Below, piece after piece: positions 1,437-37,235 of a stretch of DNA of 40,708 nucleotides. Made by a program: the position numbers and the translations under genes. A model generated the notes under the pieces. The model searched no databases. It was not told the DNA's origin and was given only the letters and a program-made list of their open reading frames with translations. Within the stretch, counting starts at the first letter, position 1. Each line of letters opens with the position of its first letter. Source of the stretch: an uncultured beta proteobacterium (GTDB taxonomy: Bacteria; Pseudomonadota; Gammaproteobacteria; Burkholderiales; Burkholderiaceae_C); contig CAIYGK010000250.1 in assembly GCA_903925725.1 (NCBI GenBank), forward strand, positions 1 to 40,708, written 5' to 3'.

Positions 1437-1835
1437 TCAATCCGGAATGACGGCTGTGACTTCGATCTCGACCTTGGCGTCGTCTTCAATCAGGTCAGCA
1501 ATCTGGACCGCGCTCATCGCCGGATAATTCCGACCCATGACCTCGCGATAAGCCGCGCCAATTTCCTTCAAGCGCTCGACATATTCCTTCTTGTCCTTGA
1601 GATACCAGGTCATGCGAACGACGTGTTCAGGAGCGCCACCGGCCGCACCCACAACCGCAACGCAGTTGATCAGGGCCTGCCTGATCTGCGCGACCAGATC
1701 GACCGAGTCGAATTTGCACTGCGCGTTCCAGCCGATTTGACCGCCAACAAAAACCTGGCGACCGCGTGCCTCGATGCCATTGGCGTAGCCCTTGGGCGCT
1801 AACCAGCCCTCGGGCTGAAGGGTCTTGTGTGTCAT
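1437..1835 (-). CDS. RidA/YjgF/UK114-family enamine/imine deaminase
   Basis: KGYANG, VFVGGQIGW, YPAMSAVQI and KVEIEVTA motifs; last gene of the abm-type cluster. Confidence 0.92.
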   Translation of the reverse strand: MTHKTLQPEGWLAPKGYANGIEARGRQVFVGGQIGWNAQCKFDSVDLVAQIRQALINCVAVVGAAGGAPEHVVRMTWYLKDKKEYVERLKEIGAAYREVMGRNYPAMSAVQIADLIEDDAKVEIEVTAVIPD

Positions 1836-2989
1836 CCCGGTTCCTTCAAAAGCTCACGACCTACGATCAACTTTTGCACTTCAGTCGCACCTTCGTAAAT
1901 GCGAAGTGCACGAATTTCCCGGTAGAGCGATTCCACCTTGACGCCGACGCGCACACCCTGCCCACCATGCATCTGCACAGCGGCGTCGATGACGCGCTGG
2001 GCATTCTCGGTAGCCGTCATTTTGGCCATCGCGGCCTCACGCGTGGTAGGGAGCTTTTGTACGTCTCGTCGCCAGGCGGCGCGGGCAACCAGCAGCGCAG
2101 CAGCGTCGATGTCTGTGGCCATCTCACCGAGTTTGGATTGCGTGATCTGAAAATCTGCCAGCGTTTGACCAAACATCGGGCGCTGGCGCACGTGCGAGGT
2201 CGCCTCGTCCATCGCACGGCGCGCAAAACCGAGTGCCGCCGCCGCCACGGACGAGCGAAAGATGTCGAGTGTGCGCATCGCCACCTTGAAACCTTCACCT
2301 GGTGCCCCCAGCCGGTTGGCGACTGGCACTTTCATGTTCGTGAATTTCAGTCGTGCCAGCGGATGCGGTGCAATCACTTCGAGCCGCTCCGCGACCTCGA
2401 AGCCCGGCATGTCGGGCGTAATGACAAAGGCGGAGATGCCGCGTGTGCCGGGCGCTTCGCCGGTACGCGCAAAGAGCGTGTAGACATCGGCAATACCGCC
2501 GTTGGAGATCCAGGTCTTCTCGCCATCGATGATGTATTGATCACCCTCCAGACGCGCACTGCATGTCATGGCGCCGACATCGGAGCCGGCCAGCGGCTCG
2601 GTCAGAGCGAAAGCGGCAAGCCACTGACCAGCTGCAACCTTGGGCAGGACGTGCTGGCGAATCTCGGTCGAGCCGGCCAGAGTGATTGCGCCGGTGCCTA
2701 GGCCCTGCATGGCGAAAGCAAAGTCAGCCAGACCATCGTGATAAGCCAGCAATTCACGGGTCAGGCACAGCGAACGCGAGTCGAGTTCAGGAAGGGCGCC
2801 ACCAAACTGAGCCGGAACACAATAGCGCAGGAAGCCGGCGGCGCCGAGCTCGCGCACGAGGCGGCGACAGGCGTTGTCGGTGTCGTAATGGTCGATCGGC
2901 GCACACTGCCCGGTCCAATCGAGCAGGGCGTCCGAAAGTTGACGATGCTGCGGAGCGTAGAAAGGCAGATCGAGAAAAGAGCGGTCCAT
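1832..2989 (-). CDS. Acyl-CoA dehydrogenase (abm cluster)
   Basis: [30 protein letters not shown]. Start moved to the ATG at 2989 (MDRSFL), which has GGAGG upstream. Confidence 0.93.
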
Positions 2990-3000
2990 GATATGCCTCC

Positions 3001-3846
3001 TCAATCGCCCATGAAGGCCGGTTTCTTCTTGGCGGCGAAGGCTTCGAAAGCACGCCGGAAGTCGCCGGTCATCATGCAGATGGCCTGCGCCTGGGCTTCG
3101 GACTCGATCATCTCCTCGATACCCATCGCCCATTCCTGATTGATCATGGTCTTGGTGACGGTATGGGCAAACCAGGGACCATCGGCCAGGCCGCGCGCCA
3201 GCTCGTGCGCTTTCGTCAAGAGATCGTCAGAGCCGTGCAGGCTGTTGAAGAAGCCCCAGCTGGCACCTTCCTCGGCGCTCATGACTCGACCGGTCATCAG
3301 CAGTTCGTTCGCACGGCCCTGCCCGATCATGCGCGGCAGCAAGCCACAGGCGCCCATATCGGCACCTGCCAGGCCAACGCGTGTGAACAGAAAGGCGGTC
3401 TTGGCGCTGGGCGTGCCGAGGCGGAAGTCGGAGGCCAGCGCCACCATCGCGCCGGCACCGGCGCAGAAGCCGTCAATGGCGGCAATGACAGGCTGCGGTG
3501 CGCGGCGCATCGCCTTCACCAGGTCCCCGGTCATGCGTGTGAATTCCAGCAACTGCGGCATGCTCATGTGCGTCAGTGGTTCGATGATCTCGAACACATC
3601 ACCGCCCGAGCAGAAATTGCCACCTTCTCCACTGAACACCACCGCGCGCACGTCGCTGGCGTACTGCAGGTTACGGAACAGGTCGCGCAACTCCGCGTAG
3701 GACTCGAAGGTCAAAGGGTTCTTCTTGTCAGGTCGATTGAGGGTAATCGTGGCGACGCGGCCGTCGCCGTCACACGACCACTTGAAGTGGCGTGCCGCGT
3801 AGTCCCTGAAAGGCCGCTTGTTGTCTTGCATGGAAATTTCTGACAC
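3001..3846 (-). CDS. Enoyl-CoA hydratase/isomerase (crotonase family)
   Basis: [30 protein letters not shown]; GTG start with an AAGGAGA RBS. Confidence 0.93.
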
Positions 3847-3869
3847 GGTGTCTCCTTCTGTGTTCTCGA

Positions 3870-4631
3870 CTACATCACCTCGCCACCGGCAACAGCAATG
3901 GCCTGGCCGGTGATGCTGCTAGTGCCCTCGCCGGCCAGCCAAAGCACAGCGTTGGCCACTTCTTCGGACTGCACCAGTCGTCCCTGGGGGTTGGACTTGG
4001 CGAGTTCGGCACGCGCCTGAGCTTCTGAGCGACCGGTCTTCGCCATGATATTGGCAAGGGCATCTTTCACAATGTCCGTCTCGGTGTAACCGGGGCAGAC
4101 GGCATTGACGGTGATGCCCTTGAGCGCCACTTCCAGGGCCAGCGAGCGCGTCAGTCCGATCACACCATGCTTGGCAGCACTGTAGGCGCTGACGTAAGCG
4201 TAGCCGCGCAGACCGGCCGTGGAAGCCACGTTGATAATGCGGCCCCAATTGGCTGCCAACATGTCGGGCAAGACTGCCTGCGTACAGTTGAAAACACCGC
4301 CGAGATTGACCGCCAGCATGTCCTGCAAGAGAGCGGCATCGGTCTTCAGGAACGGCGCACTGGCAGCCTGGCCGGCATTGTTGACGAGAATCTCAAAGGC
4401 ACCGAAACGCTGGCGTGCCAAAGCCAGTGCGGCGTCAACCGACGCGCGATCTGTGACGTCCATGCTGAGCGCATGACAGTTCTCTCCCAGTGCCGCGGCG
4501 AGGTCCGCCAGCCGAGCGGCATCGCGCCCCGTGATCGTCACATGGTGTCCGGCAGCGACAAGCGCCGAGGCGATGGCCGCACCGATGCCGCGACCGCCGC
4601 CGGTGACGAGGGCGTGGCGAGCGCTGCCCAT
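3870..4631 (-). CDS. SDR-family (3-hydroxyacyl-CoA) dehydrogenase
   Basis: [19 protein letters not shown]. Confidence 0.93.
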
Positions 4632-6937
4632 CAGGCGTTCAACGCCAACTGAGCCGCCCTCTCCAGATTGCGCTCAAGCTGGACCTTGCCACCCATGTAC
4701 TGCTTTGGCCAGGCGACGCCGGCGTAACCCTGCTCGGCAGCCGCGTGCAAGGTCCAGGCCGGATCGGCCAGATGCGGACGCGCCAGCGCGCACAGGTCAG
4801 CGCGGCCAGCCGCAACAATGGTGTTGACGTGATCGGCCTCGAAGATGTTGCCCACGGTAATCGTTGGCACATGCAATTCGTTGCGGATGCGCTCCGAAAA
4901 CGGCACCTGGAACATCCGGCCATAGACCGGCTTTTCTTCCTTGACCACCTGGCCCGAGGAGACGTGAATGATGTCAGCGCCTGCGTTCTGGAACAGCTTG
5001 GCCACTTGCGTCGCATCAGCCGGCGTGATGCCGCCAGCGGCCCAGTCGTGCGCCGAGATGCGCACCGACATCGGCTTCTCGGTGGGCCAGACCGCGCGCA
5101 TGGCCTTGAACACTTCCAGCGGATAACGGCAGCGATTCTCCAGGCTGCCACCGTATTCGTCACCCCGCTGATTGGTCAGTGGTGAGATGAAGGAGGAGAT
5201 CAGGTAACCGTGCGCCGCATGGAATTCCACCAGATCAAAACCGGCGGCATCAGCGCGTCGCGTCGCAGCGACAAAGTCCGCTTTCACCCGGTCCATGTCG
5301 GCGCGGTTCATTTCGCGCGGTGTTTGCGATACACCTGTGATGTAGGGCAGGGGCGATGGGGCAATCAAGGACCAATTGCCACTATCGAGTGGCTGGTCGA
5401 TGCCGTCCCAGGCCAGCCTGGTTGAACCCTTGCGGCCGGCGTGCCCAATCTGCAGACCCATTTTGGCTTCGCAGTTGGCATGAACAAAGTCGACAATGCG
5501 CTTCCAGTCAGCCTGCTGGGCATCGTTCCAGATGCCGGTGCAGCCGGGGGTGATGCGTCCATCTTGCGAGACTACCGTCATCTCGGTCAGAACCAAGGCT
5601 GCACCACCCAGGGCGCGCGCCGTGTAGTGCTGGAAATGGAAGTCACCCGGAACACCGTCCGTGGCCGAGTAAGTACACATCGGTGAGACCACCACACGAT
5701 TGCTGAGCGTCATGTTGCGCAGTTTGAAGGGCGTGAACATGGGCGGCACCGGGGGCTTGGCCGGGTCAGACGGCAGGCCGGCCTGTTGCTGAAACCAGCG
5801 ATCGACGCTCTCGACGTAGCTGGCGTCACGCAGCTTCTGGTTGGCGTGACCGACGCGCTGACTACCGGTCAGCACGGCGAAGGCCAGTTGCTCTGGCTCC
5901 ATATAGACGTAGCGCTCGATGTCCTCAAACCAGCTCATGCGGTTGCGTGCGGCGCTTTGCAGCTTGAGCGCTTCAGTCTCGCGCTCAGCCTGGTAACGCG
6001 CCAGACGCTCGGGTACCGTGCCTTCGCTGCTGCTCAGCACCTTGGTGAGCGCGATGCCATCTTCCATCGCCAGCTTGGTGCCTGAGCCGATGGAGAAGTG
6101 GGCGGTATGGGCGGCGTCGCCAATGAGAACGATGTTGTCCTTGAACCAGCGCTCACAGAGCACGCGGTTGAATTTCATCCAGACAGCGGAACCGCGCAGG
6201 TGGCGGGCGTTGGAAATCAGGCTGTTGCCGTCCAGCAAATCGGCAAAGAGGTTTTCACAGAAGGCAATCGCTTCCGCCGGTTCTTTCTTGTCCAGGCCAG
6301 CCCGGTACCAGGTCGGCTCTGGCGTTTCGATGATGAAAGTCGACATTTCGTCGTTGAAGCGGTAGGCATGCAGGTTGAACCAGCCCCACTCTGTCTCCTT
6401 GAAGGCAAAGGTGAAGGCAGTTTCGAACTTCTTCTTCGTTCCCAGCCAGATAAAGCGATTCGTGCGCACGTCAATGCGCGGGTTGAAATGAGCCTCATGC
6501 TTGCTGCGCACGGTCGACGACACACCGTCCGCTGCAACCACCAGATCGTAGTTGCGGGCGTACTCGTCAGGGTCGGTGATTTCTGTCTCCCACACCATCT
6601 TTACACCCAGCTCGGCGCAGCGCTTCTGGAAGATTTCCTGGAGCTTGAGCCGCGCGATGCCGCAGAAGCCGTGGCCGCTGGAAGTGATCTTGCGGTCCTT
6701 GAAGAAGACGTCCACGTCGTCCCAATGGCGGAAATTGGCTTCGATTTCGTTGACCACCTTCTCGTCGGCCTCGCGGAAGCCATCCATGGTCTGGTCCGAG
6801 AAAACAATGCCCCAGCCAAAGGTGTTGTCGGCCGCATTTCGGTCGAAGGTGGTGATGTCACATGCCGGGTTGGCCTGTTTCATGAGTAGAGAGAAGTAAA
6901 GGCCTGCGGGGCCACCGCCAAGAACAGCAATTCGCAT
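4631..6937 (-). CDS. abmA: 2-aminobenzoyl-CoA monooxygenase/reductase (salicylyl-CoA 5-hydroxylase family): FAD monooxygenase fused to an OYE-type reductase
   Basis: 768 aa. N-terminal [27 protein letters not shown]; C-terminal [22 protein letters not shown]. Neighbours are SDR, ECH, ACAD, RidA and MarR. Confidence 0.88.
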
Positions 6938-6953: not shown

Positions 6954-7472
6954 TCAGCTTGTCTTTGACCGGCTGGTGATATCCCGCTTCAACTTGCCCA
7001 GCAGGTCGGTCAGTTGCTGGAGTTCAGAGGGATCAAAATCACCGAGCAGTGAACTAACCCAACGTTCGTGCTGCACGGCCATCTTCTGAAACAGTTTCTT
7101 TCCCTTGGGTGTCAAACTGATCGCGTAAGCGCGGCGATCGTTCGGGTCGTCACGCCGTCGAACCAGATCTTCCTCAATCAGGCGATCGGTCAGCGCAGTG
7201 ATGTTGCCGCAGGTCACCATCAAGAGTCTTGACAATTCCCTCATCTTCAGGCCATCCGGATAGCGGTAAAGCTGAGACATCAGGTCAAAGCGTGGCAATG
7301 TGGTGTCAAAGCCGTTACGCAATTCCGTGCGCAAACGGATTTCCATCAAGTGGTAACACGCCACCAGCCGCACCCACATCCGCAGGGGATCGTGGCCGTT
7401 GTCGCTGACCGCGTCGGCCGACGCTGCACCAGATGTCGGTTTCTTGCTAGCTACTCGAACAAGTTTTGTCAT
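6954..7472 (-). CDS. MarR-family transcriptional regulator
   Basis: TTLPRFDLMSQL...DGLKMRELSRLLMVTCGNIT...DRRAYAISLTPKG. Likely start is the ATG at 7472, 7 nt after the bamB-like stop. Confidence 0.92.
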   Translation of the reverse strand: MTKLVRVASKKPTSGAASADAVSDNGHDPLRMWVRLVACYHLMEIRLRTELRNGFDTTLPRFDLMSQLYRYPDGLKMRELSRLLMVTCGNITALTDRLIEEDLVRRRDDPNDRRAYAISLTPKGKKLFQKMAVQHERWVSSLLGDFDPSELQQLTDLLGKLKRDITSRSKTS

Positions 7473-7479
7473 GAGCCGT

Positions 7480-9390
7480 TTACGCTTTCGCAAGAATGCC
7501 GCGCTCAAGGAAGTCGTCCTTGACGAAGGAAAGTCCAAACTTGTCGAGCGTCTCGGCGGTGGGAATGCCGTCCTCGTTCCAGCCCTTGAACTCGTAGTAG
7601 GCGTCCAGCAACTGCTTCTCGGCCTGCGGGTCCCGGTGTTTCCATTGGTCGGCCGGCGGCGCCTCGTCCGCGCGCCGCAGACCGCGCCGGATATTGATGG
7701 CCCGAATCAGGTTGCGATTGCGGGCGGCAATCTTCCACAACTCGTCCGGGTCAAGTGCTTTGCCGGTAGCGAGCGCTATCAGTTGCGGCAGGTTGTGAAT
7801 GTGGTACGGTGGCCGACCGCCGAACTGGCCTCTGAATGACGAGAGGAATGCACACGTGCCGATAGCGTCGTCCACGTAATGCATGGTTTCATTCCAGTCG
7901 CAGATATGAACCGACGCTTCAATGCTGGGGTGCGTGCGCGGCTCCCATTCCATCAGCCACTTCTTGAATCGTTCCGGCGCTGCGACCCAGCCCTTGACGT
8001 AAGCTTCGCGCTCAGCCTTGTCGGCGATTGGCGTCTGCGGAAAGGACCCCTCGATCTGGTTGATGGCCATCTTCTCGCCGGTCGCGTACATCAGGAAGTA
8101 GGGGTAGTTGATCATCGAAAGCTTGATCGGAACCTGTTCAAACCTCTTCATGGTGTTGTGGTCAAAGGCCTCAGCCCCTTTGCCGATCTGGCGCGCGGCA
8201 AGATAGACGCCATTGGCGAGCAGGTCGCCTATCCCTTCGCGGCGAACAATCAATTCCAGAAGGTAGAAAAAGCGCTCCGCGCCGGTGGGCGGAAAATCCG
8301 GCAGTTCCTGACTGGTCAGAATGCCTGCTTCATAAAGCTCGATGGCAAAGGCCATCACTTGCGGCGTGGAGTAGGCATCCAGACCGTACTCCTGCGTGAG
8401 CCCGATGATGTCGTAGTCGAATTCCAGATCCTCCATCGCCGCCATGGCGTAGGTCAGTTTGCTGTAGCACTTCTGGAAATAGGGACGCCGACCGGGGTAG
8501 TTGATGGCCTGATGGCAGTCTTTGGGACAGTTGTAACAACCCGTCCAGCGCACCCGCAGTTTGTCTTCCAGTGCGAGCCAGGCTTCTTCGCGCTCCTTGC
8601 TCCAGAAATTCTTGCGCCGCCCGCGCGCATTGCCCCAGGCAAAATTGTTCACGTGAAATTCGTCACCATCGCCGTGCGCCATGGTGTCACCGGCATCCCG
8701 GTTGTCATGAATTTCGCGAACCATGCGGCTGCAGATCTCAAACAGCTCGGCCGGTTTGGCGACATACAGATCCTTGGTGCCACGCACCGCTATGGCCTTG
8801 AGCCGCTTGTCTCCCATGATCATGCCCACCCCGCGCGACGCGCTGGAATTGGCATGCTCGATGGAAGCCATGAAGACTCTGTTTTCACCCGCCAGGCCAA
8901 TGGCAGCCACCTGGATCCGCGCGTCCTTCAGCTCCGTCTGAATGATCTCCGCGGTTTCTGAGGCGCCCTTGCCCTGAAGGTGGGCGGCGTCGCGTATTTC
9001 GACTTTGTCGTTGTTGATGTACAGGTAGACCAGGCTCGACGCCTTACCCTGAAGGATGATCTTGTCGTAACCGGCCTGCTTGAGCTCGGGGCCGAAAAAG
9101 CCGCCAAAGATCGAATGGGAATAGCGGTCCGTCTGGGGTGAGATCGTGTTCACCATGGTGCGGTTGGCACCGATCACCGGCGTGCCGTCCAGCAGTCCGG
9201 TGCTGAAGATCAACAGGTTGGCTGGCGAGAAAGCGTCGACTTCGGGCGGTACCCGATCCCAGAGTATCCTGGCAGCTGTTCCCTGTCCGCCGAGATGGAG
9301 CTCAGTCAACGTTTCGTCAGTGGCTTTGCGCTCGATGCTCCCTGTGCCCAAGTCGATCTCGAGGTTGAATCCGGTTTCTGCGTACTTCAT
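7480..9390 (-). CDS. bamB: AOR-family bis-pterin (W/Mo) enzyme, BamB-like (class II benzoyl-CoA reductase catalytic subunit homologue)
   Basis: MKYAETG N-terminus, LWDRVPPEV, CYNCPKDC 4Fe-4S motif, QKCYSKLTY, WGNARGRRKNFW, YATGEK..QIEG, PPYHIHN. These are colinear with Geobacter BamB as remembered. Confidence 0.85.
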   Translation of the reverse strand: MKYAETGFNLEIDLGTGSIERKATDETLTELHLGGQGTAARILWDRVPPEVDAFSPANLLIFSTGLLDGTPVIGANRTMVNTISPQTDRYSHSIFGGFFGPELKQAGYDKIILQGKASSLVYLYINNDKVEIRDAAHLQGKGASETAEIIQTELKDARIQVAAIGLAGENRVFMASIEHANSSASRGVGMIMGDKRLKAIAVRGTKDLYVAKPAELFEICSRMVREIHDNRDAGDTMAHGDGDEFHVNNFAWGNARGRRKNFWSKEREEAWLALEDKLRVRWTGCYNCPKDCHQAINYPGRRPYFQKCYSKLTYAMAAMEDLEFDYDIIGLTQEYGLDAYSTPQVMAFAIELYEAGILTSQELPDFPPTGAERFFYLLELIVRREGIGDLLANGVYLAARQIGKGAEAFDHNTMKRFEQVPIKLSMINYPYFLMYATGEKMAINQIEGSFPQTPIADKAEREAYVKGWVAAPERFKKWLMEWEPRTHPSIEASVHICDWNETMHYVDDAIGTCAFLSSFRGQFGGRPPYHIHNLPQLIALATGKALDPDELWKIAARNRNLIRAINIRRGLRRADEAPPADQWKHRDPQAEKQLLDAYYEFKGWNEDGIPTAETLDKFGLSFVKDDFLERGILAKA

Positions 9391-9440
9391 TGGTATTCTT
9401 GACCCTACTTTGTTACCGGTTCGACCACCTTCATCCAGCC

Positions 9441-9980
9441 CTAGCGTCTGCCGAGCTTGGCGACTGTTTCCAGAACCTTCTGCAGCCCGTGTTTGGCAAT
9501 CATCGATTCAACGCCGATCTCGACCTCGCCCAACTGCGGCTGTTGCTCCCGGACTTCCTCCTCGATCTCTTCATAGATCAGCGCTCCGTTGGGACACCAC
9601 TCGACGCATTTCGGCACCTTCAGCGGTGGCGTGTCTTCGCACATATCGCACTTCAGCGCGAGACCAGAGTCGGGTTCCTTGAACAGGTCGCGTGACGGAC
9701 AGGATGCACGGCAAAAGTCGCAATTGCTGTATTCCTTACCGTCCAGGATGTACTTGTTCCTGCTAGTACATTCAGCGGCCGTGTATTCGCCCGCATAGAC
9801 CGGCAGGTAGATATCCTTCAGCGGGTCCTTGATGATTTGAATGCGCGAACGTGTCGGGTTGATGCTGCTGTAGCGTGGCTTGGCGTGGAAGGCCGCACAA
9901 GCGAGCTCGCAGGCCCTGCAGCCAATGCATTTATTGGCATGGATGGTGATGCTTTTCCTGATTTTCTTGGCTTTGGCCAT
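9441..9980 (-). CDS. bamC: BamC-like multi-[4Fe-4S] electron-transfer subunit
   Basis: CIGCRACELAC.AFHA.P.YSS.NP, DGKEY..CDFCRASCPSRDLFKEPDSGL.LKCDMC, EIGVES. These match the BamC pattern as remembered; adjacent to bamB-like. Confidence 0.85.
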   Translation of the reverse strand: MAKAKKIRKSITIHANKCIGCRACELACAAFHAKPRYSSINPTRSRIQIIKDPLKDIYLPVYAGEYTAAECTSRNKYILDGKEYSNCDFCRASCPSRDLFKEPDSGLALKCDMCEDTPPLKVPKCVEWCPNGALIYEEIEEEVREQQPQLGEVEIGVESMIAKHGLQKVLETVAKLGRR

Positions 9981-9988
9981 GGCAGCGC

Positions 9989-10417
9989 CTATTCGTTGGC
10001 GGCTTCGAGCTCACGCCACTTGTAGTCGATCACCTCAAGCAGTACACCATTCATCTTCTTCGGATGCACGAAGGCGAACTCGCAGTCCCGAAACGAGCGC
10101 AGACCACCGATCATCGGGTAGCCCAAAGCCTGAATCTCTTCAACCGCTCTTGCTGTGTTGTTGACATTGAAACTGATCAGCATCACGCCTTCGCCGCGCT
10201 TCTCAATGAACTTGGCGACATCGCCGTCCGACGTCGTCGATTCCATCAGCTCAAAACCGACGCCACCAAGCCAGTAGCGTGCGACCCGGATTTTCTCGGG
10301 CTCATCGACGTAGGCATCGTCGGGCGCCGTCTTGCCCAGCATCGGCTCCCAGATCTTGCGTGCTTCATCGAGGTTGCGCACAGCGATGCAAATGTGATCG
10401 ATCTTGTTGACTTTCAT
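9989..10417 (-). CDS. VOC-family protein, methylmalonyl-CoA-epimerase-like
   Basis: IDHICIAV, FELMES, KFIEKRGEG, AFVHPK..NGVLLE; GAGGAG RBS. Confidence 0.88.
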   Translation of the reverse strand: MKVNKIDHICIAVRNLDEARKIWEPMLGKTAPDDAYVDEPEKIRVARYWLGGVGFELMESTTSDGDVAKFIEKRGEGVMLISFNVNNTARAVEEIQALGYPMIGGLRSFRDCEFAFVHPKKMNGVLLEVIDYKWRELEAANE

Positions 10418-10635: not shown

Positions 10636-12258
10636 ATGAACAAAAGTGCCCATGTTGATCGCTTCATTCTTGACAGCATGCCACCGCCTGAGCAGTGGCC
10701 GGAGTTCATTTTCGAGACACCGGAGCTGCAATTCCCGCAGCGCATGAATGCCACAGCATGGCTGCTGGATCGCGCAGTTGCTGAGGGAGACGGTGAGCGC
10801 GTTGCCATCATCAGCAATGAGCTTCGCTGGACCTATCGAGAGTTGCAGCGGCAGGTCAATCGGCTGGCGCGCCTTTTGACAGAAGATCTTGGCGTACAGA
10901 CGGGCAATCGCGTGCTGCTGCGTGGCATGAACTCTCCCTGGATGGCGGCGGGATGGCTGGCCATCTGGAAAACGGGGGCAGTCGCGGTCGGCACGATGCC
11001 CTTGCTGCGCGCCAAGGAACTCAGGCAGATTGTCCAGCTAGCCAATATCAGCCACGCTTTTTGCGAAGCATCGCTGGTTGCGGAACTTGATCTGGCTGCA
11101 TCGGACTGTCCGCAGTTGAAGCACGTTCAGCTCTACGACAACGATGAGATCAGGCAACGTCTGGCTACCAAGTCTGCCGAGTTTGAAGCAGTTGATACCG
11201 CCGCTGACGATCCAGCCCTGGTTGCTTTCACTTCCGGCACCACCGGTGTACCCAAAGGCTGTATCCACACCCATCGGGACATACTCGCCATGTGCGAGGT
11301 GGTTCCGCGCCACTGCCTGAAACCGAGCCGCGATGACGTCTTCATTGGCACGCCACCGCTGGCCTTCACCTTTGGTCTGGGCGGACTTTTGTGTTTCCCG
11401 ATGCACGCGCGGGCCAGCACAGTGCTTCTGCCCAAGCTGCCACCTGAGGCGTTGATCGCCGCCATGGAGAAGTACCACGCGACCCTGTGCGTCACTTCAC
11501 CAACCGGCTATCGGCAAATGACGCCGCTGGTCAAACAACACGATCTGAGTTCACTCAAGAAGTGCCTTTCCGCTGGCGAAGCGCTTCCAGTGCCGACACG
11601 TGACCAGTGGCGCGCTGCCACGGGCATCCAGATCCACGACGGCGTCGGCGGCACCGAGGTGATCCACATCTATATTGCATCCGACCCTGACAATTACCGT
11701 GTTGGCGCACTCGGCAAACCGCTGCCCGGCTACCGTGCGATGCTGGTCGACAAGGACATGTACCCTGTGCCCCCCGGCGAGGAAGGCTGGCTCGCTCTCA
11801 AAGGGCCAACGGGTTGCCGCTACCTCGCCGACAAGCGCCAGGCCGACTATGTGCGCCAAGGCTGGAACATCACTGGCGACACCTATCACACTGATTCAGA
11901 TGGCTACTACTACTTCCACGCCAGAGTTGACGACATCATCGTTACCTCCGGATACAACGTGGCCAGCCCGGAAGTCGAATCGGTGCTGCTGGAGCACCCA
12001 GCTGTCGCTGAGTGCGGGGTCATCGGTGCGCCCGATCCTGATCGGGGCCAGGTCCTGAAGGCATTTGTCGTCCTGAAACCCGGTCGAAAGGGCGATGGCC
12101 AACTGATCAAGGAACTTCAGGACTTTGTCAAGAACAATGCCGCACCCTACAAATATCCGCGCATCGTCAGCTTTGTCGATGCGCTGCCGCGCACCGAGAC
12201 AGGCAAGTTGCAGCGTTTCAGGTTGAAGGAAATCAAGGAGCCAAGTCGGTCCGCCTGA
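10636..12258 (+). CDS. 2-aminobenzoate-CoA ligase (benzoate-CoA ligase family)
   Basis: SAHVDRF..D.MPPPEQWPEF N-terminus, FTSGTTGVPKG, PPLAFTFGLGG, PYKYPR, LPRTETGKLQR; divergent from the abm genes. Confidence 0.88.
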   Translation: MNKSAHVDRFILDSMPPPEQWPEFIFETPELQFPQRMNATAWLLDRAVAEGDGERVAIISNELRWTYRELQRQVNRLARLLTEDLGVQTGNRVLLRGMNSPWMAAGWLAIWKTGAVAVGTMPLLRAKELRQIVQLANISHAFCEASLVAELDLAASDCPQLKHVQLYDNDEIRQRLATKSAEFEAVDTAADDPALVAFTSGTTGVPKGCIHTHRDILAMCEVVPRHCLKPSRDDVFIGTPPLAFTFGLGGLLCFPMHARASTVLLPKLPPEALIAAMEKYHATLCVTSPTGYRQMTPLVKQHDLSSLKKCLSAGEALPVPTRDQWRAATGIQIHDGVGGTEVIHIYIASDPDNYRVGALGKPLPGYRAMLVDKDMYPVPPGEEGWLALKGPTGCRYLADKRQADYVRQGWNITGDTYHTDSDGYYYFHARVDDIIVTSGYNVASPEVESVLLEHPAVAECGVIGAPDPDRGQVLKAFVVLKPGRKGDGQLIKELQDFVKNNAAPYKYPRIVSFVDALPRTETGKLQRFRLKEIKEPSRSA

Positions 12259-12266: not shown

Positions 12267-14396
12267 ATGAGCAAATCCGTCACAGAGAGATACAAGATCG
12301 GCATTGACGTCGGCGGCACGTTTACCGACTTCGCCCTGATGGGCAGCAAGGGCCGCTCGGTCGTACACAAGCAATTGTCAACACCGGCCGACCCGTCAAT
12401 CGCCGTGATGGAAGGCCTCGTCGCACTTGCGCAGGCCGAGGGCTTGAGCTTCGATGCATTTTTGAGCCAGGTATCACTGATCGTGCACGGCACGACAGTG
12501 ACAACCAACGCGGTGCTCACCGGCCGCACCGCACGCACCGCGCTGCTGACGACGCGGGGCTTTCGCGATACGCTGCAGATGCGCCGCGGCGTGCGTGAGA
12601 TGATGTACGACAACCGCTGGCATGCACCTGAGCCCATCGTGCCGCGCCATCTTCGGCTGCCGATCACTGAACGTCTGGATGCCGGTGGCCGCGAACTCGT
12701 GGCGCTTGATGTGGCAGATGTTGAATCGGCCATCCGGACCCTGCGCGAGCAAGGCATCGAGGCGGTGGCAATCTGCTTTCTGCACTCCCATGGCAGCGCC
12801 GCACACGAGGAGGCGGTCGCGCGTCTGGTGGAGCAGGCGCTGCCGCAGGCCTACATGTCGGTATCCTCGCGCGTCTTGCCGCAAGTGCGGTTTTATGAGC
12901 GCACCAGCACTACGGTACTTAACGCCGGTGTCGGACCGATCCTCGCGCACTATCTGGATCGGCTGGATGCCCGCCTGCGCGAGGCCCAATGGCGTGGCAC
13001 GCTGCTCATCATGCAGTCCAACGGCGGCACTGCCGCGCCGGCCAGTGTGCGGCGCCTAGCCGCCTCAACGCTTTTGTCCGGTCCCGCCGCTGCGCCGGCG
13101 GCAGGGTTGGCATGGATGGCGCCAACGCGCAAGAAAAGCTTCATCACCGTCGACATGGGCGGCACCAGCTTCGACGCCGCTCTGGTTCAGGGCGGCGAGC
13201 CTGCCGTTACCACGGCTGGCCACGTCAACCGCTTCGCGATGGCGCTGCCCAGCATGGAAATCAACACCATCGGCGCCGGAGGAGGGTCGATCGCCTGGAT
13301 CGACGATGGCGGTCTGCTGCACATGGGTCCGCAAAGCGCCGGAGCCGATCCTGGTCCGGCGTGCTATGGCAGGGGAGGTACCGAGCCCACGTGCACTGAC
13401 GCCAACCTGGTGCTCGGATATCTGTCGGCCAGCTACTTTGCTGGTGGGCGTTTGCAACTGGACGAGATCGCCGCGCGCAGCGCTATCGAGCAACGCATCG
13501 CCACGCCGCTGAAGCTGTCCGTAGTTGAAGCGGCGCAGGGCATGTTCCACGTCATCAACGTGGCGATGGCCGCTGCCATCCGCGAAATATCGGTGCAAAA
13601 GGGTTTCGACCCGCGTGAGTTTCCACTGGTGTGCGCCGGCGGCGCCGGGCCACTGCATGGAGCGGCGATCGCCGATGAACTCGGCATCGAGCGCGTCTTC
13701 GTGCCGCGCGAGTCTTCCGTGTTCTGTGCATCAGGGATGCTGCACAGTGACCTCAAGCACGATCACGTGCGCAGCTTTGCGCGCGTGCTGCATCCACCCG
13801 GTCCCGACCGCGTGCAGGTGCGCACGGGTGTGCGTACCTTGCTGCGCGAGATGCGCGCGCAGGGCCGCAGCGCGTTGAACGCGGAGGGTATCGCGCCCGA
13901 ACGCCAGCAGTTGCGCCACGCGCTGGATCTGCGTTACACGGGCCAGTATCACGAGGTCACGGTCGATGTGCCAACCGACCTGCTCGACCACGCCGATTGG
14001 GCAGCCGTGGCCGAACTCTTTCACAGCCAGCACGACCGGCTCTACGGCTATGCTCTGCGCGAAGAAGGCACACCCGTCGAACTGCTCAGCCTTCGTGTGG
14101 CCGCCGTCGGTATCACCGACAAACCGGCGCTCAGGCGCCAGCCGCGCACGGCGTCTGCACCGCGTGTTGCGCTCAAGGGGCGGCGCGCGGTTTACCTGCC
14201 CGGACACACAGCCAGTATCCAGGTTCCGGTCTACGACGGTGAAAAGCTGCTGCACGGCCACCAATTCAACGGACCGGCGCTGATTGAAAGCGCCAATACC
14301 AGCATCCTGGTCCCCACCGGCTGGGCCGCAGAGATTGACGCGCTCGGCAGTTGTGTGCTGAGCGTGCGTCCCGGAGCAAAGAGGTCAGCCCAATGA
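12267..14396 (+). CDS. Hydantoinase/oxoprolinase alpha (ATP-binding) subunit
   Basis: IDVGGTFTD, HGTTVTTNA, LLSGPAA, DMGGTSFD, IGAGGGSI, SAGADPGPACYG. Confidence 0.95.
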   Translation: MSKSVTERYKIGIDVGGTFTDFALMGSKGRSVVHKQLSTPADPSIAVMEGLVALAQAEGLSFDAFLSQVSLIVHGTTVTTNAVLTGRTARTALLTTRGFRDTLQMRRGVREMMYDNRWHAPEPIVPRHLRLPITERLDAGGRELVALDVADVESAIRTLREQGIEAVAICFLHSHGSAAHEEAVARLVEQALPQAYMSVSSRVLPQVRFYERTSTTVLNAGVGPILAHYLDRLDARLREAQWRGTLLIMQSNGGTAAPASVRRLAASTLLSGPAAAPAAGLAWMAPTRKKSFITVDMGGTSFDAALVQGGEPAVTTAGHVNRFAMALPSMEINTIGAGGGSIAWIDDGGLLHMGPQSAGADPGPACYGRGGTEPTCTDANLVLGYLSASYFAGGRLQLDEIAARSAIEQRIATPLKLSVVEAAQGMFHVINVAMAAAIREISVQKGFDPREFPLVCAGGAGPLHGAAIADELGIERVFVPRESSVFCASGMLHSDLKHDHVRSFARVLHPPGPDRVQVRTGVRTLLREMRAQGRSALNAEGIAPERQQLRHALDLRYTGQYHEVTVDVPTDLLDHADWAAVAELFHSQHDRLYGYALREEGTPVELLSLRVAAVGITDKPALRRQPRTASAPRVALKGRRAVYLPGHTASIQVPVYDGEKLLHGHQFNGPALIESANTSILVPTGWAAEIDALGSCVLSVRPGAKRSAQ

Positions 14397-16153
14397 AGCG
14401 CGATGCTATCCAGGTCTCGGTGCTGCAGCGGCGCCTGAAATCCATCACCGAGGAGATGGGCCTGACGCTGTTGCGCACAACGCGCTCGCCGATTCTCAAT
14501 GAGGCGCGCGACTTTGTCACAGGCCTGTACGATGCCAAGGGCCGCATGCTGGAGCAGACCGAATACATACCGGTGCTGGCCTTCGCGCTGCAGCCCGCCT
14601 GCGAAAACGTGGTGCGCTTTTTCGGGGACGACATCCATCCGGGCGACGTCATCCTGCACAACGACGTGTTCAGTGGCGGCAACCAGAACAACGATGTCGC
14701 CGTCTTCAAACCGATCTTCGACGGCAAGACCTTGGTCGCATGGGCCGCCTGCAAGGGTCACCAGGCCGATATCGGTGGCGCCGTGCCCGGTGGCTACAAC
14801 CCGGAAGCGCGCGAGGTCTGGCAGGAGGCATTGCGCATTCCGGCTGTGAAAGTTCTTGAGCGAGGCAAGCTTCGACGCGATGTCTGGAACCTGATATTCG
14901 CCAATATCCGGCTGAAGATCGTCGAAGAGGACATCAAGGCGCAGATCGGTGGCTGCACGGTCGGTGAGCGGGGCTTTCACGAGTTGTTGGCACGTTTCGG
15001 ACGGCCCACACTACAGCGGCTGCTCGAGGACCTTTTTGACAGCAGCGAGCAGATGGTACGCTCAGAGATTGCGGCCATCCCTGACGGCCGCTACCGTGGT
15101 GATTCCACGGTCTTTTACGACGGCGTCACCGATGGCAGCACGATGCAGATCGCGCTCGCGGTGACCGTTCAGGGCAATGGCATCACGTTTGATTTCAGTG
15201 GCTCGTCGCCACAGACGCCAGGCTTCGTCAATGCCCCTCATGCTGCCACGGCATCGGCGCTGCTGCTGACCTTCCTGATGCTGATCAACCCGGAGATTCC
15301 GCACAACGCCGGCATCCTGCGGCCGATCAAGATCATCAACCCCGAGGGCTCCTTCCTCAACGCACGGTTCCCGGCAGCCACCACGTTCGGCAATTCAATC
15401 ACAGGACCGACTTCGGACGCCGTCTTTCGCGCCATGGCACAGGCGCTGCCAAAGGTGGTCACCGCAGGCTGGAACCGCTTCCTTGGCTTTGCCGTCTCAG
15501 GCGACGACCCGCGGCACGCGAACCACCGACGCTATGCCGATATCCTGTTTCTGTCTCTCAAGGGCGGATCCGGTGCGACACACGGCGCAGACGGCTATGA
15601 CCACATCGGCCTGATCAACTGCGCCGGCGGCATTCTGGCGCAGGATTACGAGATGTTCGAGATTCACAACCCACACTTGCTGCGCAAGCACGAATACCTG
15701 AGCGACAGTGCTGGCGCTGGTCAGTGGCGTGGTGGCCTGGGTGTCGAGACCGAGTTCGAGATGCTTGGCGACAACGTGACCGGTGTCGCTTTTGGCGATG
15801 GCATTGAGGAAGCTGCGCGAGCCTTTGGTTTCTTCGGTGGCGGGGCCGGCTCGCGCAATGCCATCGTGCTGACCTATCCCGACGGCAGCCAGCGGCGGGT
15901 GAAGTCCAAGGAAATCATTCGCGGGATCCCGCCCGGTACCGTATTCCACCAGCTCGCCGGCGGCGGCGGCGGCTATGGCGATGCCTTTGATCGGCCAGCC
16001 GAACTGGTCGCGACCGACGTGCGCGCCGGGGTGGTCAGTGTGCAGGCGGCAGGCGAAGACTACGGAGTGGTCGTCGATGCCGGCAATGGTGTGGTTGACA
16101 CCGCTGGCACGGCGCGCCTGCGTGCGCGACGCAAACCCAGGAGCACGGCATGA
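14393..16153 (+). CDS. Hydantoinase/oxoprolinase beta subunit
   Basis: EMGLTL.RT.RSPILNEARDF, HQADIGGAVPG, DSAGAGQWRGGLG, GGGGGYGD; ATGA overlap with the alpha subunit. Confidence 0.95.
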   Translation: MKRDAIQVSVLQRRLKSITEEMGLTLLRTTRSPILNEARDFVTGLYDAKGRMLEQTEYIPVLAFALQPACENVVRFFGDDIHPGDVILHNDVFSGGNQNNDVAVFKPIFDGKTLVAWAACKGHQADIGGAVPGGYNPEAREVWQEALRIPAVKVLERGKLRRDVWNLIFANIRLKIVEEDIKAQIGGCTVGERGFHELLARFGRPTLQRLLEDLFDSSEQMVRSEIAAIPDGRYRGDSTVFYDGVTDGSTMQIALAVTVQGNGITFDFSGSSPQTPGFVNAPHAATASALLLTFLMLINPEIPHNAGILRPIKIINPEGSFLNARFPAATTFGNSITGPTSDAVFRAMAQALPKVVTAGWNRFLGFAVSGDDPRHANHRRYADILFLSLKGGSGATHGADGYDHIGLINCAGGILAQDYEMFEIHNPHLLRKHEYLSDSAGAGQWRGGLGVETEFEMLGDNVTGVAFGDGIEEAARAFGFFGGGAGSRNAIVLTYPDGSQRRVKSKEIIRGIPPGTVFHQLAGGGGGYGDAFDRPAELVATDVRAGVVSVQAAGEDYGVVVDAGNGVVDTAGTARLRARRKPRSTA

Positions 16154-16584
16154 CTTCGGCGACGACGACACCGCCCCCCTACATTGACCACATCGGCATC
16201 ATCGTCTCCGATCTTGATCAGGCGGTCAAAAGGCTGAGCCCCTTGTTCGGGACTCCGGCAAGAATCAAGGAACTCACCGAGGTCGGCCTGCGCGTGGCCG
16301 AGTTCGACGCTGCCAATGTGGTCATCGAATTGCTGCAATACACCAGCGCTACAAGGGGCTTCGCGCAACAGGTAATGGGTGAGCGGCTCGGATTGAATCA
16401 CCTGTCGGCACGGGTGACCGATGTGGAGCAGTCGATCACCACCTTGCAGCAAAGCGGCTTTACGCCGATGGCCGGTTTTCCACGTCAGGGGGCGCATGGC
16501 CGGGTCGCTTTTTTCGAGCCTGACGCCGTGACTGGCTTGCTGTTTGAAGTTTGCCAGCTTGACGCGAAGGAGCACCCCACATGA
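16150..16584 (+). CDS. VOC-family protein, methylmalonyl-CoA-epimerase-like
   Basis: IDHIGIIV, IELLQ, GLNHLS, GAHGRVAFF.P, GLLFEV; ATGA overlaps at both ends. Confidence 0.87.
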   Translation: MTSATTTPPPYIDHIGIIVSDLDQAVKRLSPLFGTPARIKELTEVGLRVAEFDAANVVIELLQYTSATRGFAQQVMGERLGLNHLSARVTDVEQSITTLQQSGFTPMAGFPRQGAHGRVAFFEPDAVTGLLFEVCQLDAKEHPT

Positions 16585-17963
16585 TGGCCGCACAGGATCC
16601 GCAACGCCGGCTCTGGAACGAGCGCGTCGAGTTGATGTCGCACGACGAAATGCGCGCGCTGCAGCTCTCGCGGCTGCAGCGACAAGTCGCCTACAACCAC
16701 GCGCATTCGCCCTATTACCGCGAACGGCTCGACGCGGCTGGCATCGCGCCTCGCGATATTTCGAGCTTCGACGATTTCACCCATGTGCCCTTGATGGACA
16801 AGGTCGAACACAGGCGCGTGCAGGAGGAGTCGCTCGTGCGCCACGGCACGCCCTTCGCCTTGCTGGCCTGTGCGCCACGGGAAAAAATCGTTCGCGTTAG
16901 CGCTACTTCTGGCACCACCGGCATGCCTACGCTGTACACACTCACCGCGCACGACGTTGCGGTGGTCAACGAGATGCATGCACGCAAATACTGGCGTGCT
17001 GGCATACGGCCCGGGCACGTGATGGTGCAGGCGCTGTCTTTGTCGATGTTCACCGGCGGACTACCGCTTTCACAGGGCATACAGCATCTGGGCGCCTGCG
17101 TGGTGCCCGTCGGCATCGAAGGGGGTACGCAGCGGGTGCTCGACTTTGCTCACCTGACCCGGCCCGACGCGCTGATCGCCACGCCCTCCTTTGGACAGTA
17201 CCTGATAGAACAATGTCCCACGCTCACGGGCAAGCCTGCCAACGAGCTGGGCTTTCGTTGGTTCTTCTGCGCCGGTGAACCCGGTGGCGGCAACCCGGGC
17301 CTGCGCCGGCTGCTGGCCGATGGTTTCGATGCCAAGGTGTTTGACCACACCGGGGGCGGCCACGCCTTTCACGGCATCTCATGCGACGAATCACCCGACG
17401 AATACAAGGGCATGCACTTCACATCTGAAGACCATTGCCTGCTGGAGCTGGTCGACCCGCATACGCACGCGCCGATCGCGCTGGCTGAGGGTGCCGTTGG
17501 CGAGATGGTATTTACGTTCCTGGATTGGGAGGGCGGGCCCTTCATGCGCTATGCGCTGGGCGACCTGATCCAGGTCTGGACCAAGCCGTGCAGCTGCGGC
17601 ATGCCAGGTCTGCGCTTCAAGATCGTGGGGCGCACAGACGACATGCTGATCATCAAGGGCGTGAACCTGTACCCCGAGGCGATTCGCCAGGTGCTGATGG
17701 GCTTTGCACCGCGTGTGACGGGGAGCTTTCGCATCCGCTTGCGCGAACCGGGTCCCAAGGTCGTGCCACCACTGCACTTGCGCATCGAACATGGTCCCGA
17801 CCTTGCCCAAGCCGATCTGCCAGAACTTGAAGCCCAGTTGCAGACCCGAATGCGCTCTGAACTGCGTGTTGCGCCACTGATCGAGTGGCTGGCACCCGGC
17901 ATACTGCCGCGCGAGGCACACAAGACGAAGTTCATCGAGATCGTCGGTGACGTTGGCCACTGA
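16581..17963 (+). CDS. Phenylacetate-CoA ligase (PaaK) family aryl-acetate CoA ligase
   Basis: ATSGTTGMP, AGIRPG, AGEPGG, RYALGD, GRTDDMLIIKGVNLYP. Confidence 0.9.
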   Translation: MMAAQDPQRRLWNERVELMSHDEMRALQLSRLQRQVAYNHAHSPYYRERLDAAGIAPRDISSFDDFTHVPLMDKVEHRRVQEESLVRHGTPFALLACAPREKIVRVSATSGTTGMPTLYTLTAHDVAVVNEMHARKYWRAGIRPGHVMVQALSLSMFTGGLPLSQGIQHLGACVVPVGIEGGTQRVLDFAHLTRPDALIATPSFGQYLIEQCPTLTGKPANELGFRWFFCAGEPGGGNPGLRRLLADGFDAKVFDHTGGGHAFHGISCDESPDEYKGMHFTSEDHCLLELVDPHTHAPIALAEGAVGEMVFTFLDWEGGPFMRYALGDLIQVWTKPCSCGMPGLRFKIVGRTDDMLIIKGVNLYPEAIRQVLMGFAPRVTGSFRIRLREPGPKVVPPLHLRIEHGPDLAQADLPELEAQLQTRMRSELRVAPLIEWLAPGILPREAHKTKFIEIVGDVGH

Positions 17964-17979
17964 ACAAGGAGCACACTCC

Positions 17980-18762
17980 ATGGACCTGAAGCTGAGCGGT
18001 CGCCGCGCCCTGATTACCGGCGGCTCCAAGGGGATCGGCTTGGCCATCGCCCGCCTGCTGGCAAACGAAGGTTGCCACCTGGACCTGGTTGCGCGATCAG
18101 CCGACGACCTGGAGAGCGCAGGCGAGGAACTGCGTCAACGTCACGGTGTCGAGGTGAGGGTTCATGCCATTGACCTGGCTGGACGGGGGCGAGCCGAAGA
18201 GTTGGCAGCCTTGTGCACGGACATCGACATTCTCGTCAACAATGCCGGTGCCACACCGCGTGGCAGCCTGCTTGATGTCGAAGAAGACCGCTGGCGCGCC
18301 GCCTTCGACCTCAAGCTGTTTGGCTATATCAATCTGTCGCGTGCTTTCTATCGACAGATGAAGGCGCGCCACAGCGGCGTCATCATCAACATCATTGGCA
18401 ACGGCGGCGAACGACTCGACGCCGGCTACATCGCCGGCGCCACTGGCAACGCTGCGCTGATGGCCTTCACGCGCGCGCTTGGCGGCGCCAGTGCGACCGA
18501 CGGTATCCGTGTGGTTGGCGTCAATCCGGGTCCGGTGGCGACGGAGCGTCTGGTTGGCCTGATGAAGACCGAGGCCAGTACACGCCATGGCGACCCCGCC
18601 CGTTGGCGCGAATTCGAAGCCGGGTTTCCCTTCGGACGCGCTGCCACTGTTGAGGAAATCGCTGCCACAGTGGCCTTGCTCGCCTCCGATCTGTCGTCGT
18701 ACACCACCGGCACCATCATCACCATCGACGGCGGCATGGCAAACAGGGGTTCGCTCATCTGA
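17980..18762 (+). CDS. Atypical SDR-family oxidoreductase
   Basis: TGGSKGIG, NNAG, VNPGPVAT. The catalytic region reads YIAGATGNAAL with no YxxxK. ATG at 17980 follows AAGGAG. Confidence 0.88.
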   Translation: MDLKLSGRRALITGGSKGIGLAIARLLANEGCHLDLVARSADDLESAGEELRQRHGVEVRVHAIDLAGRGRAEELAALCTDIDILVNNAGATPRGSLLDVEEDRWRAAFDLKLFGYINLSRAFYRQMKARHSGVIINIIGNGGERLDAGYIAGATGNAALMAFTRALGGASATDGIRVVGVNPGPVATERLVGLMKTEASTRHGDPARWREFEAGFPFGRAATVEEIAATVALLASDLSSYTTGTIITIDGGMANRGSLI

Positions 18763-18901
18763 CCGAGATTTTGACTGCGATTTTGCTGGACTGCCCTTTG
18801 TATTCGGTATACGATATGCGCTGATGAAGCCGGTCCTGACCAACTGTTCTGGTTCGGTGCCCGGCCCAGCTCAAATTGCCGCGAGAACTCAGGAAGACCC
18901 C

Positions 18902-20917: not shown

Positions 20918-20979
20918 GTGACCCGCCCCCTACCGGCCGACCGTCAGTATGCTGGTAGCTCAATGTAATTGCAGATCAC

Positions 20980-21972: not shown

Positions 21973-22158
21973 CGCTGCCTCCAATTACAAATCCATATCG
22001 GCGAAATCGCCAGTCCAGTTTAGTAAGAAAGAGAAGATCGCAAAGGGGGGACACAGGCACTGCCTTGCGCAGCAATGTTTTGATTACCCGGGCTTCGAAG
22101 TACCGCACGTCCGAAAGATTTCTCGGTGGGAATTTTAGTAAGTGACTGTGAAATGTTT

Positions 22159-22174
22159 TGTGAACTAGTTCACA
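22159..22174. promoter_or_regulatory. CRP/FNR-family-type binding site
   Basis: Perfect palindrome TGTGA-ACTAGT-TCACA (TGTGA-N6-TCACA) in the intergenic region upstream of the redoxin gene. Confidence 0.65.
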
Positions 22175-22296
22175 CTCGTGCCGGCTTTCTGGAAGTTTTG
22201 CGTGAGACGGTCGTTTGTCTTTCTGCAAATTTGACCAGTGAACATGAACGAATATCCGTTGTCGAGTGCGGCCGACCCGAACGTGCCTGTGCCGAT

Positions 22297-23070: not shown

Positions 23071-23288
23071 GTCGGTCTCCTTGTCAAGACATTCAATTTG
23101 AAATTGTCGGCATTGGGTCAAACACGCGCATTATCTGACCGTTCCGATCCAAGGATTCAATCAGAACCTGAAGTTTGCCGAGACGGCATTCGCCGGGACG
23201 CATACTTGGTGTGGCTGGCAGGGGGCAGGTCACCCGGGAAAAACCGGCGAGCCCGGATGAAGCGGCGGAGAAATGTCCCAAATGCGTT

Positions 23289-26174: not shown

Positions 26175-26183
26175 GGGTCGAGA

Positions 26184-27149: not shown

Positions 27150-27191
27150 GGTAATCACCTCGTTCTTCAGGTCCGGATCCGGTCGCCGCGC

Positions 27192-29683: not shown

Positions 29684-29693
29684 GACGCGGCGC

Positions 29694-30740: not shown

Positions 30741-30744
30741 GCTC

Positions 30745-31884: not shown

Positions 31885-31960
31885 AAAATCTCCTTTGGTT
31901 TTAAATGTGAAAGTGGCCACCGATTGGCGACCGCGCGGACACTCGGGGGAGCCGACGAAC

Positions 31961-33151: not shown

Positions 33152-33200
33152 GCAATCTCCGCTAGGTAGTTCATTTCAGAAGCCATATAAGGTCTGCCGC

Positions 33201-33452: not shown

Positions 33453-33468
33453 TGGTGCTCGATCCGCC

Positions 33469-35790: not shown

Positions 35791-35841
35791 GACTTGGCTC
35801 TCTTCAGGAGTGTGCGGTCGGAGGTATGACAGGGCGCTCGC

Positions 35842-37180: not shown

Positions 37181-37235
37181 GGTCCGCCCTCGATTCTCAA
37201 ACAGTGTTTCAATTCATTCATTTCTGGTTAACCCT

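Follow-up and report, generated by a model that had tools for sequence, protein, structure and literature searches.

Class II benzoyl-CoA reductases (BCRs) have been placed in strict anaerobes, with one substrate described (PMC12096430, PMC11971306), and the closest described system to the one reported here is the Bam[(BC)2DEFGHI]2 complex of Geobacter metallireducens (PDB 4Z3W-4Z40). In the catalytic subunit BamB, Cys322 is the tungsten ligand, and Glu251 and His255 are described as invariant and as taking part in proton transfer (PMC12096430). Lone bamBC paralogues are known already (PMC1924859, PMC5109826, PMC13119186), and R. ferrireducens has been reported as lacking a clustered bam set (PMC2755013). 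An anaerobic '2-aminobenzoyl-CoA reductase' yielding benzoyl-CoA has been reported in Azoarcus/Aromatoleum evansii, with no gene named in the accessible text (PMC4539516), and the indoleacetate (iaa) pathway ends in 2-aminobenzoyl-CoA (PMC9613470). Here we describe a bamB-bamC pair on a stretch of 40,708 nucleotides (hereafter the window; CAIYGK010000250.1), which is the entire contig C250 of a metagenome-assembled genome (MAG) from an uncultured betaproteobacterium. Our preferred explanation, to which we give a probability of roughly 0.47, is that the pair encodes a divergent aryl-CoA reductase head of class II, which would dock on the BamD-I of a canonical bam operon and reduce 2-aminobenzoyl-CoA under anoxic conditions.

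The description of a class II BCR in Betaproteobacteria, or of a BamB for amino-aromatics, was not found in the open literature, most subscription journals being outside the search. Nor did the accessible text of the open literature, searched under the enzyme name, tie BamB to a 2-aminobenzoyl-CoA reductase. In what follows, genomes carry G-numbers (the source MAG is G000) and fetched loci L-numbers. The genes at the centre of the analysis are arranged as follows.

9989..10417, minus strand: glyoxalase/methylmalonyl-CoA-epimerase-fold protein, 142 amino acids (aa), opening the run (domain scan)
9441..9980, minus strand: BamC-type polyferredoxin, 179 aa, with 12 conserved Cys and three predicted [4Fe-4S] clusters (structure-database match, conservation)
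9391..9440, minus strand: spacer of 50 nt, the deletion site, where sister genomes have about 8 kb of bamD-E-F-G-H-I (alignment, gene order)
7480..9390, minus strand: BamB-family catalytic subunit, 636 aa, of the short-loop 'AHG(E/D)GDxFH' subclade (sequence, tree, model)

An earlier note, made from the letters alone, had recognised a bamB and a bamC here, and the comparisons agree. Against G. metallireducens BamB (4z3w_A) the 636-aa protein scores 801 bits across residues 1-634, its second-best match being an AOR at 224 bits, and for the 179-aa protein BamC (4z3w_E, 224 bits) is the sole match at E<=1e-8. The AlphaFold model of the 636-aa protein superimposes on 4z3w with a TM-score of 0.96 and an rmsd of 1.9 A, compared with TM-scores of about 0.8 for AORs. 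The proposed clustering with BamB rather than with ordinary AORs is borne out by the tree, where an 85-row BamB group that includes the window protein stands apart from 10 AOR-type rows with 100% SH-aLRT support. For the tree and for residue numbering the G. argillaceus protein (L099) stood in for 4z3w_A, with which it aligns free of gaps at 1421 bits; the root of this first tree sits on a very long branch, and the order of events was not read from it. The YdhV model PRK09849 scores 212 bits on the window protein against a cut-off of 868. As a separate observation, two ordinary AOR-family genes lie elsewhere in G000, on C628 and C403.

The same note described both proteins as following BamB and BamC motif by motif, and this stands for the metal ligands and the proton donor. 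The tungsten ligand Cys322 is kept as Cys308, the Fe-S cysteines 299/302/306/534 as Cys285/288/292/513, and the proton-donor His260, invariant across 58 aligned sequences, as His246; Phe250 (=Phe264) and Glu447 (=Glu461) are likewise retained. It does not stand for the Zn/proton loop before His260, which is about 12 residues shorter in the window protein, so that Glu251 faces a gap and His255 and Glu257 face Asp, in a region where the alignment is uncertain and the model pLDDT is 59-74. His255 varies even among canonical BamB rows. The short loop is common to 67 of the 85 BamB rows, a set chosen for likeness to the window protein, and complete bam operons of strict anaerobes contain many of these short-loop BamBs; we therefore regard it as the mark of a broad paralogue family and not as damage. 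Outside the canonical GSPQEM clade, and nested in the short-loop family, the window protein belongs to the AHG(E/D)GDxFH subclade (28 rows, support 100/98), which has ten near-fixed private residues, two of them Gly in the loop.

Two further forms of BamB were seen in passing. A third subfamily with a DDSFHH loop (L181:9739-12206, L061, L054, L058, L049) occurs in Georgfuchsia, Sulfuritalea, Sterolibacterium, Bradyrhizobium and sulfate reducers; in many cases it is a bamBC pair on its own, with hydratase and acyl-CoA dehydrogenase genes close by that are similar to those of the window (62-64%). Among tandem BamB paralogues of Geobacter (L042:7983-9953, L043, L044, L045), the first copy has Asn or Gly in place of the W-ligand Cys.

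The window BamC has the 12 conserved Cys predicted to bind the three [4Fe-4S] clusters that are a feature of class II BCRs. Of 64 columns that are conserved among 52 operon-linked BamCs (their range 58-64) it retains 59, and the five residues that have drifted are 29, 48, 73, 79 and 108. With dN/dS values of 0.05-0.06 for bamB (8 comparisons) and 0.06-0.15 for bamC, the sequences indicate that both genes are under strong purifying selection. A complex predicted from two copies of the window BamC and residues 20-460 of a congener BamE scored 0.00 and carries no weight either way.

Orthologues of the window bamB close a bamC-D-E-F-G-H-I-B operon in G023, G307, L039, L114 and L123, some of them cut at the contig start, and the window aligns with G307 and G023 on either side of an 8-kb gap. 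Because these sister operons hold bamD-I between bamC and bamB, the window form is a derived 8-kb deletion. In the tree built with more care, the eight rows lacking bamD-I form a single cluster (100/99) that lies within rows retaining it, and G057 represents a second, separate loss. G307 has a block of about 4 kb, bamF-I, at 99-100% identity in its canonical and its orthologue operon, bamD/E differing by about 20%, which implies that the electron-input part is shared; the loss of bamD-I is most simply explained by redundancy with the canonical module. The gene order of the window recurs in other genomes (L024, L027, L031, L034). One contig from the sequencing run covers positions 6159-9808 with 0 differences, a run that may be the assembly source and as such is not independent. 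At the head of the G307 orthologue operon there is also a 106-residue oah fragment (71%, L180:11655-12035), compatible with a former ring-cleavage link.

The pair had been called an orphan, with no Hdr-, Nuo- or BamF-like gene in the 40 kb. This is true at the level of the locus only: Hdr, Nuo and FlpD domains are absent from the 36 window open reading frames (ORFs) scanned, and congener BamD/E/H/I/F gave no tblastn match on the window contig. On C422, G000 encodes another bamB, of the canonical type, which follows korAB-like genes, had, oah and dch and is cut by the contig end at codon 332. This gene is 98.5% identical to the bamB of G004, which falls in the canonical clade, has the canonical loop and is followed by bamC-D-E-F. 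Across the congener set of 144 genomes a BamB-family gene is present in 19, of the canonical type in 16 and whole in 14, and bamD lies about 550 bp downstream of the whole canonical gene in 14/14, which leads us to expect bamD-I just beyond the end of C422. A canonical bamB without bamD was seen only in G000 and G111, both cut by contig ends. The window-type bamB occurs in 12 genomes (G000 included), of which nine have a canonical bamB, eight have bamD and one more has bamE; carriers tested via their own loci (G160-G164) have bamD in 5/5. The 98%-complete G057 carries a single copy each of bamD and bamE, and both lie within its canonical operon. Taken together, we consider it quite likely that electrons would be supplied in trans from the BamD-I of the canonical operon.

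The metagenome was also searched for the missing module. Among the run contigs a population of different sequence, at about 45x, dominates the matches to the congener bam operon; bamD is represented by short fragments (depth 4-5, identity about 85-88%) that may belong to the source organism or to another, and searching the metagenome contigs for an exact 40-nt match to the end of C422 gave 0 matches. Nuo-like matches on C1, C292 and C754 were considered as bamGHI and rejected, with 31-40% to BamH compared with 79-80% for true congener BamH paralogues. Complete class II systems evidently occur in Betaproteobacteria. Runs of bamB-C-D-E-F-G-H lie beside dch/oah in the Rhodoferax-like genomes G057:C11, G150:C3, G131:C201 and G059:C178 (L189, L194, L192, L190), and G150 has a class I bcr about 9 kb from its bam run.

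The surroundings of the pair bear on the substrate, and the remaining features of the window are these.

6954..7472, minus strand: MarR-family regulator, likely starting at an ATG at 7472, 7 nt past the bamB stop (domain scan, spacing)
4631..6937, minus strand: AbmA-type 2-aminobenzoyl-CoA monooxygenase/reductase, O2-dependent (PRK08255, 1255 bits, cut-off 1078)
1437..4631, minus strand: short-chain dehydrogenase/reductase (SDR), enoyl-CoA hydratase (PRK08258), acyl-CoA dehydrogenase and RidA-family protein, the remaining abm-type run, with spacers <=23 nt
10636..12258, plus strand: divergent aryl-CoA ligase, AbmG-like (best solved match anthranilate-CoA ligase 4wv3_A)
12267..40377, no strand assigned: indoleacetate-type (iaa-like) catabolic genes (domain scan; no direct comparison with Iaa sequences)

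Nine genes on the same strand with spacers <=50 nt thus form one run, namely the glyoxalase-fold gene, bamC, bamB, marR, abmA and the genes for the SDR, hydratase, acyl-CoA dehydrogenase and RidA, and their spacing suggests that they are co-transcribed. A sigma-70 scan found 0 promoter-like sites, terminators were at chance level only, and the repeats in the divergent spacer are short. The ligase scores 286 bits to 4wv3_A vs 242 to benzoate ligases. In the iaa-like region the domain scan recognised hydantoinase A/B, a PaaK-like ligase, a 3HCDH-ECH fusion, an ABC transporter, a CoA transferase, an XDH-family trio, a split B12 mutase and an acyl-CoA dehydrogenase, a gene content that we take to be that of the iaa pathway; these genes would supply 2-aminobenzoyl-CoA. 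The iaa and abm gene lists used for comparison are those we assume for these clusters, and the AbmA name for the 4631..6937 product is in part our presumption. It also follows in part the A. evansii work (PMC4539516), and the family of this protein carries the NCBIfam name salicylyl-CoA 5-hydroxylase/oxidoreductase. The XDH-family trio (33469-37180) could be an indoleacetate hydroxylase; its large subunit has HcrA as its nearest solved structure (377 bits) and retains the C-terminal Glu. Two more glyoxalase-fold genes stand in the iaa-like region, at 16150-16584 and 22297-23121.

To see how general this context is, 150 fetched loci were compared, 37 from the subclade and 113 others, with thresholds of at least 60% for abmA and at least 50% for abmG relative to the window genes. 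An abmA or abmG gene flanks 17/37 subclade loci vs 0/113 others, and an orthologue of the glyoxalase-fold protein (at least 55%) is found at 20/37 vs 2/113. The counts are not independent, many loci being kin and a few duplicated between collections; the abm link spans about five separate lineages, one of them deltaproteobacterial, in Rhodoferax-like MAGs, L039/L116, Sterolibacterium L065, the deltaproteobacterial L086/L094 and also G307. The copy in G102 lies beside a Trp dioxygenase, that in G057 beside a cyclase-family protein and an IorA-like gene, and that in L155 beside XDH, cyclase and 2-oxoacid oxidoreductase genes, neighbours that we take to belong to routes from indole compounds to 2-aminobenzoyl-CoA. 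The 2-aminobenzoyl-CoA link proposed in the earlier note is strengthened by this cross-phylum context, and from the sequences we judge 2-aminobenzoyl-CoA to be the probable substrate, with considerable room for doubt.

A proteome adds to this. Georgfuchsia toluolica P0008 (NCBI) is 88% identical to the window protein, which makes this species a cultured carrier, and G307, which holds an identical protein, has three BamB-family genes of 636, 642 and 653 aa. In toluene-grown Georgfuchsia the canonical, 653-aa BamB stands above class I BCR, with areas of 2.2-2.7e9 across the six samples compared with 2.3-2.7e8 (Fe(III)) and 7.3-9.8e8 (nitrate) for BcrB, and a search of the table by terms gives the 642-aa protein and no 636-aa tungsten protein (PMC9290046 supplement 1); proteome locus tags were tied to genes by length, name and neighbours. 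The main text of that paper concludes a class I BCR, and the word 'tungsten' is absent from it (PMC9290046). That the 636-aa orthologue went undetected on toluene is weak evidence that fits a substrate other than benzoyl-CoA. The canonical bam neighbours at G307:C1 3413916-3424000 (L183) are also abundant on toluene, and the BamE there is split into ORFs of 296 and 736 aa, both detected.

The source MAG is fragmented and of low depth (4.22 Mb, 759 contigs, N50 8 kb, 82.9% complete), with genes split at contig ends; for example, NarG model positions 268-662 are uncovered by the two main pieces. It encodes heme-copper oxidases, the two NarG pieces, boxA/C and abmA, and its relatives at 89-95% bear the titles Rhodoferax, Comamonadaceae or uncultured betaproteobacterium. 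The betaproteobacterial origin suggested earlier is upheld, and the gene content indicates a facultative, Rhodoferax-like host that is not a strict anaerobe. A genome-wide search, which had been recommended, recovered a Thauera-type class I bcrCBAD on C249, the second bamB and, by Pfam search, a tupABC-like transporter on C735 whose TupA has TTST; bamD-F were not found in the assembly. The transporter is only compatible with tungsten rather than molybdenum in the predicted reductase.

In the mechanism we propose, the divergent ligase would make 2-aminobenzoyl-CoA, which AbmA would hydroxylate and reduce when O2 is present. When O2 is absent, BamBC would serve as another (BC)2 head for the shared BamD-I bifurcation core, and the tungsten head would add two H at C3/C4 via the conserved His. 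Loss of NH3 from the amino-dienoyl-CoA would follow and lead straight to the Oah substrate; in an alternative outcome, NH3 elimination would yield benzoyl-CoA.

Several findings weigh against this reading. The two residues described as invariant for proton transfer, Glu251 and His255, are gone from the window BamB (PMC12096430), and its BamC partner ranks near the bottom of the BamC conservation range (59/64). No abm gene is present at 20/37 subclade loci, at some because the contigs are short (13/24 at lengths of at least 8 kb); the neighbours of L033 and L035 are unrelated, and L033, L035, L114 and L087 have no indole-route neighbours. The TupA match of 226 bits is under the 400-bit cut-off, the class I bcr of G000 could do ring reduction, and neither tblastn nor hidden Markov models recovered bamC1, D, E or F from the 83%-complete G000 assembly. 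G102 (91% complete) has the pair and, with the queries used, no canonical bamB, bamD, bamE, oah or bcrB, which makes it the best case for a true orphan.

The head might instead be an auxiliary isoenzyme for benzoyl-CoA or a broad range of aryl-CoAs on the shared BamD-I, like Gmet_1802/1803, and simply lie in the abm operon. The lone bamB2C2 of G. metallireducens is induced 24- and 16-fold on benzoate (PMC1924859), and many short-loop relatives lie in plain bam operons without amino-aromatic genes; we nevertheless hold this to be unlikely, given an abm link that is limited to the subclade and crosses phyla, the private residues of that subclade, and an orthologue unlisted in a toluene proteome where benzoyl-CoA is an intermediate. 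A truly stand-alone enzyme, as the earlier note envisaged with another donor, would have BamC fed directly by reduced ferredoxin (KorAB/IorAB-type) and would do without bifurcation, the irreversible loss of NH3 providing the pull. In its favour, bamD-F were not found in the source assembly, G102 or G122, bamD-I was lost at least twice independently with selection maintained, and 2-oxoacid:ferredoxin oxidoreductase genes flank L073, L155 and the G057 copy. It is made quite unlikely by the second canonical bamB, the sister operons with bamD-I and the nine of 12 congeners with bamD or bamE, by bamD in G160-G164 and G057, and by the 460-759 contigs of the three assemblies in which bamD and bamE are both missing. 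In addition, on general chemical grounds an amino substituent should make the ring harder to reduce.

That the head acts on another ortho-substituted aryl-CoA such as 2-hydroxybenzoyl-CoA, or does something else while the class I BCR or the Hcr-like XDH trio carries out the 2-aminobenzoyl-CoA step, seems very unlikely to us. The NCBIfam name of the AbmA family, the HcrA match of the XDH subunit and bcrCBAD on C249 speak for such schemes. The RidA gene, the anthranilate-ligase match and the indole/Trp catabolic neighbours favour an amino substrate, however, while 6/12 carriers, including G057, have no bcrB match and the XDH subunit retains its C-terminal Glu as in a hydroxylase. An oxidative role, in which the enzyme re-aromatises a dienoyl-CoA or amino-dienoyl-CoA and electrons exit via BamC, would require no bifurcation, and in vitro the reverse reaction, dependent on 1,5-dienoyl-CoA, is catalysed by the G. 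metallireducens complex (bioRxiv 10.64898/2026.04.10.717634). Supporting evidence for this earlier suggestion was not found here: the nearest sisters hold a full bifurcation module in the operon, which points to reduction, and cyclohexanecarboxylate-type genes were not recognised beside the subclade loci, so that we hold it to be highly improbable. The MAG is fragmented and of low depth, as might suit a chimeric contig or a decaying relic, yet both readings are scarcely credible and were rejected: the frames are intact with dN/dS of 0.05-0.15, the gene order is repeated in other genomes, and the junctions are bridged by run contigs.

Returning to a 2-aminobenzoyl-CoA-reducing head on canonical BamD-I, we would tentatively go further and propose that the whole subclade is the anaerobic 2-aminobenzoyl-CoA reductase that has long lacked a gene, a swappable head on a common bifurcation core that facultative bacteria co-transcribe with an O2-dependent enzyme for the same thioester. 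If this is true, a reaction that the literature names at the close of anaerobic tryptophan, indole and auxin degradation would receive a gene, a second substrate class would exist for tungsten class II ring reductases, BamB paralogues would be substrate-specific heads, and ring reduction would be possible without Glu251. The use of bamB as a strict-anaerobe marker in surveys would need care, with 19/144 genomes of a facultative genus carrying the family and the 98%-complete G057 having a full bam set without a bcrB match. The cultured carrier Georgfuchsia toluolica makes the substrate idea directly testable.

Compared with known systems, the pair is closest to the Bam complex of G. metallireducens, sharing the fold (TM 0.96), 56% identity, the W-ligand Cys and a three-cluster BamC. 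Unlike the G. metallireducens protein, the window BamB has an RGQFGG insertion, Phe323->Tyr, Thr458->Asn and the loop shorter by about 12 residues, and unlike that system its operon lacks bamD-I and its host is facultative; at the position of the UGA in Geobacter/Geotalea rows, congener BamF has a Cys. The AOR/FOR/WOR enzymes share the superfamily fold, but AORs sit on a long separate branch, and the YdhV clade (Mo, Cys-ligated) has the AOR superfamily fold and the Cys ligand in common with the window protein (PMC12096430). Gmet_1802/1803 (BamB2/BamC2) and Desulfococcus multivorans BamB1 similarly represent a second bamBC outside the main cluster, with no amino-aromatic link reported in the accessible text of these sources (PMC1924859, PMC5109826). 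They are reported at 66% and 64% to BamB and the window subclade is at 56-60% to the Geobacter-type protein, a comparison by reported identity. Finally, the window resembles the A. evansii abm cluster in its ligase, monooxygenase/reductase and beta-oxidation genes (PMC4539516), and differs from it in that a tungsten-enzyme head and a glyoxalase-fold gene precede marR-abmA on the same strand.

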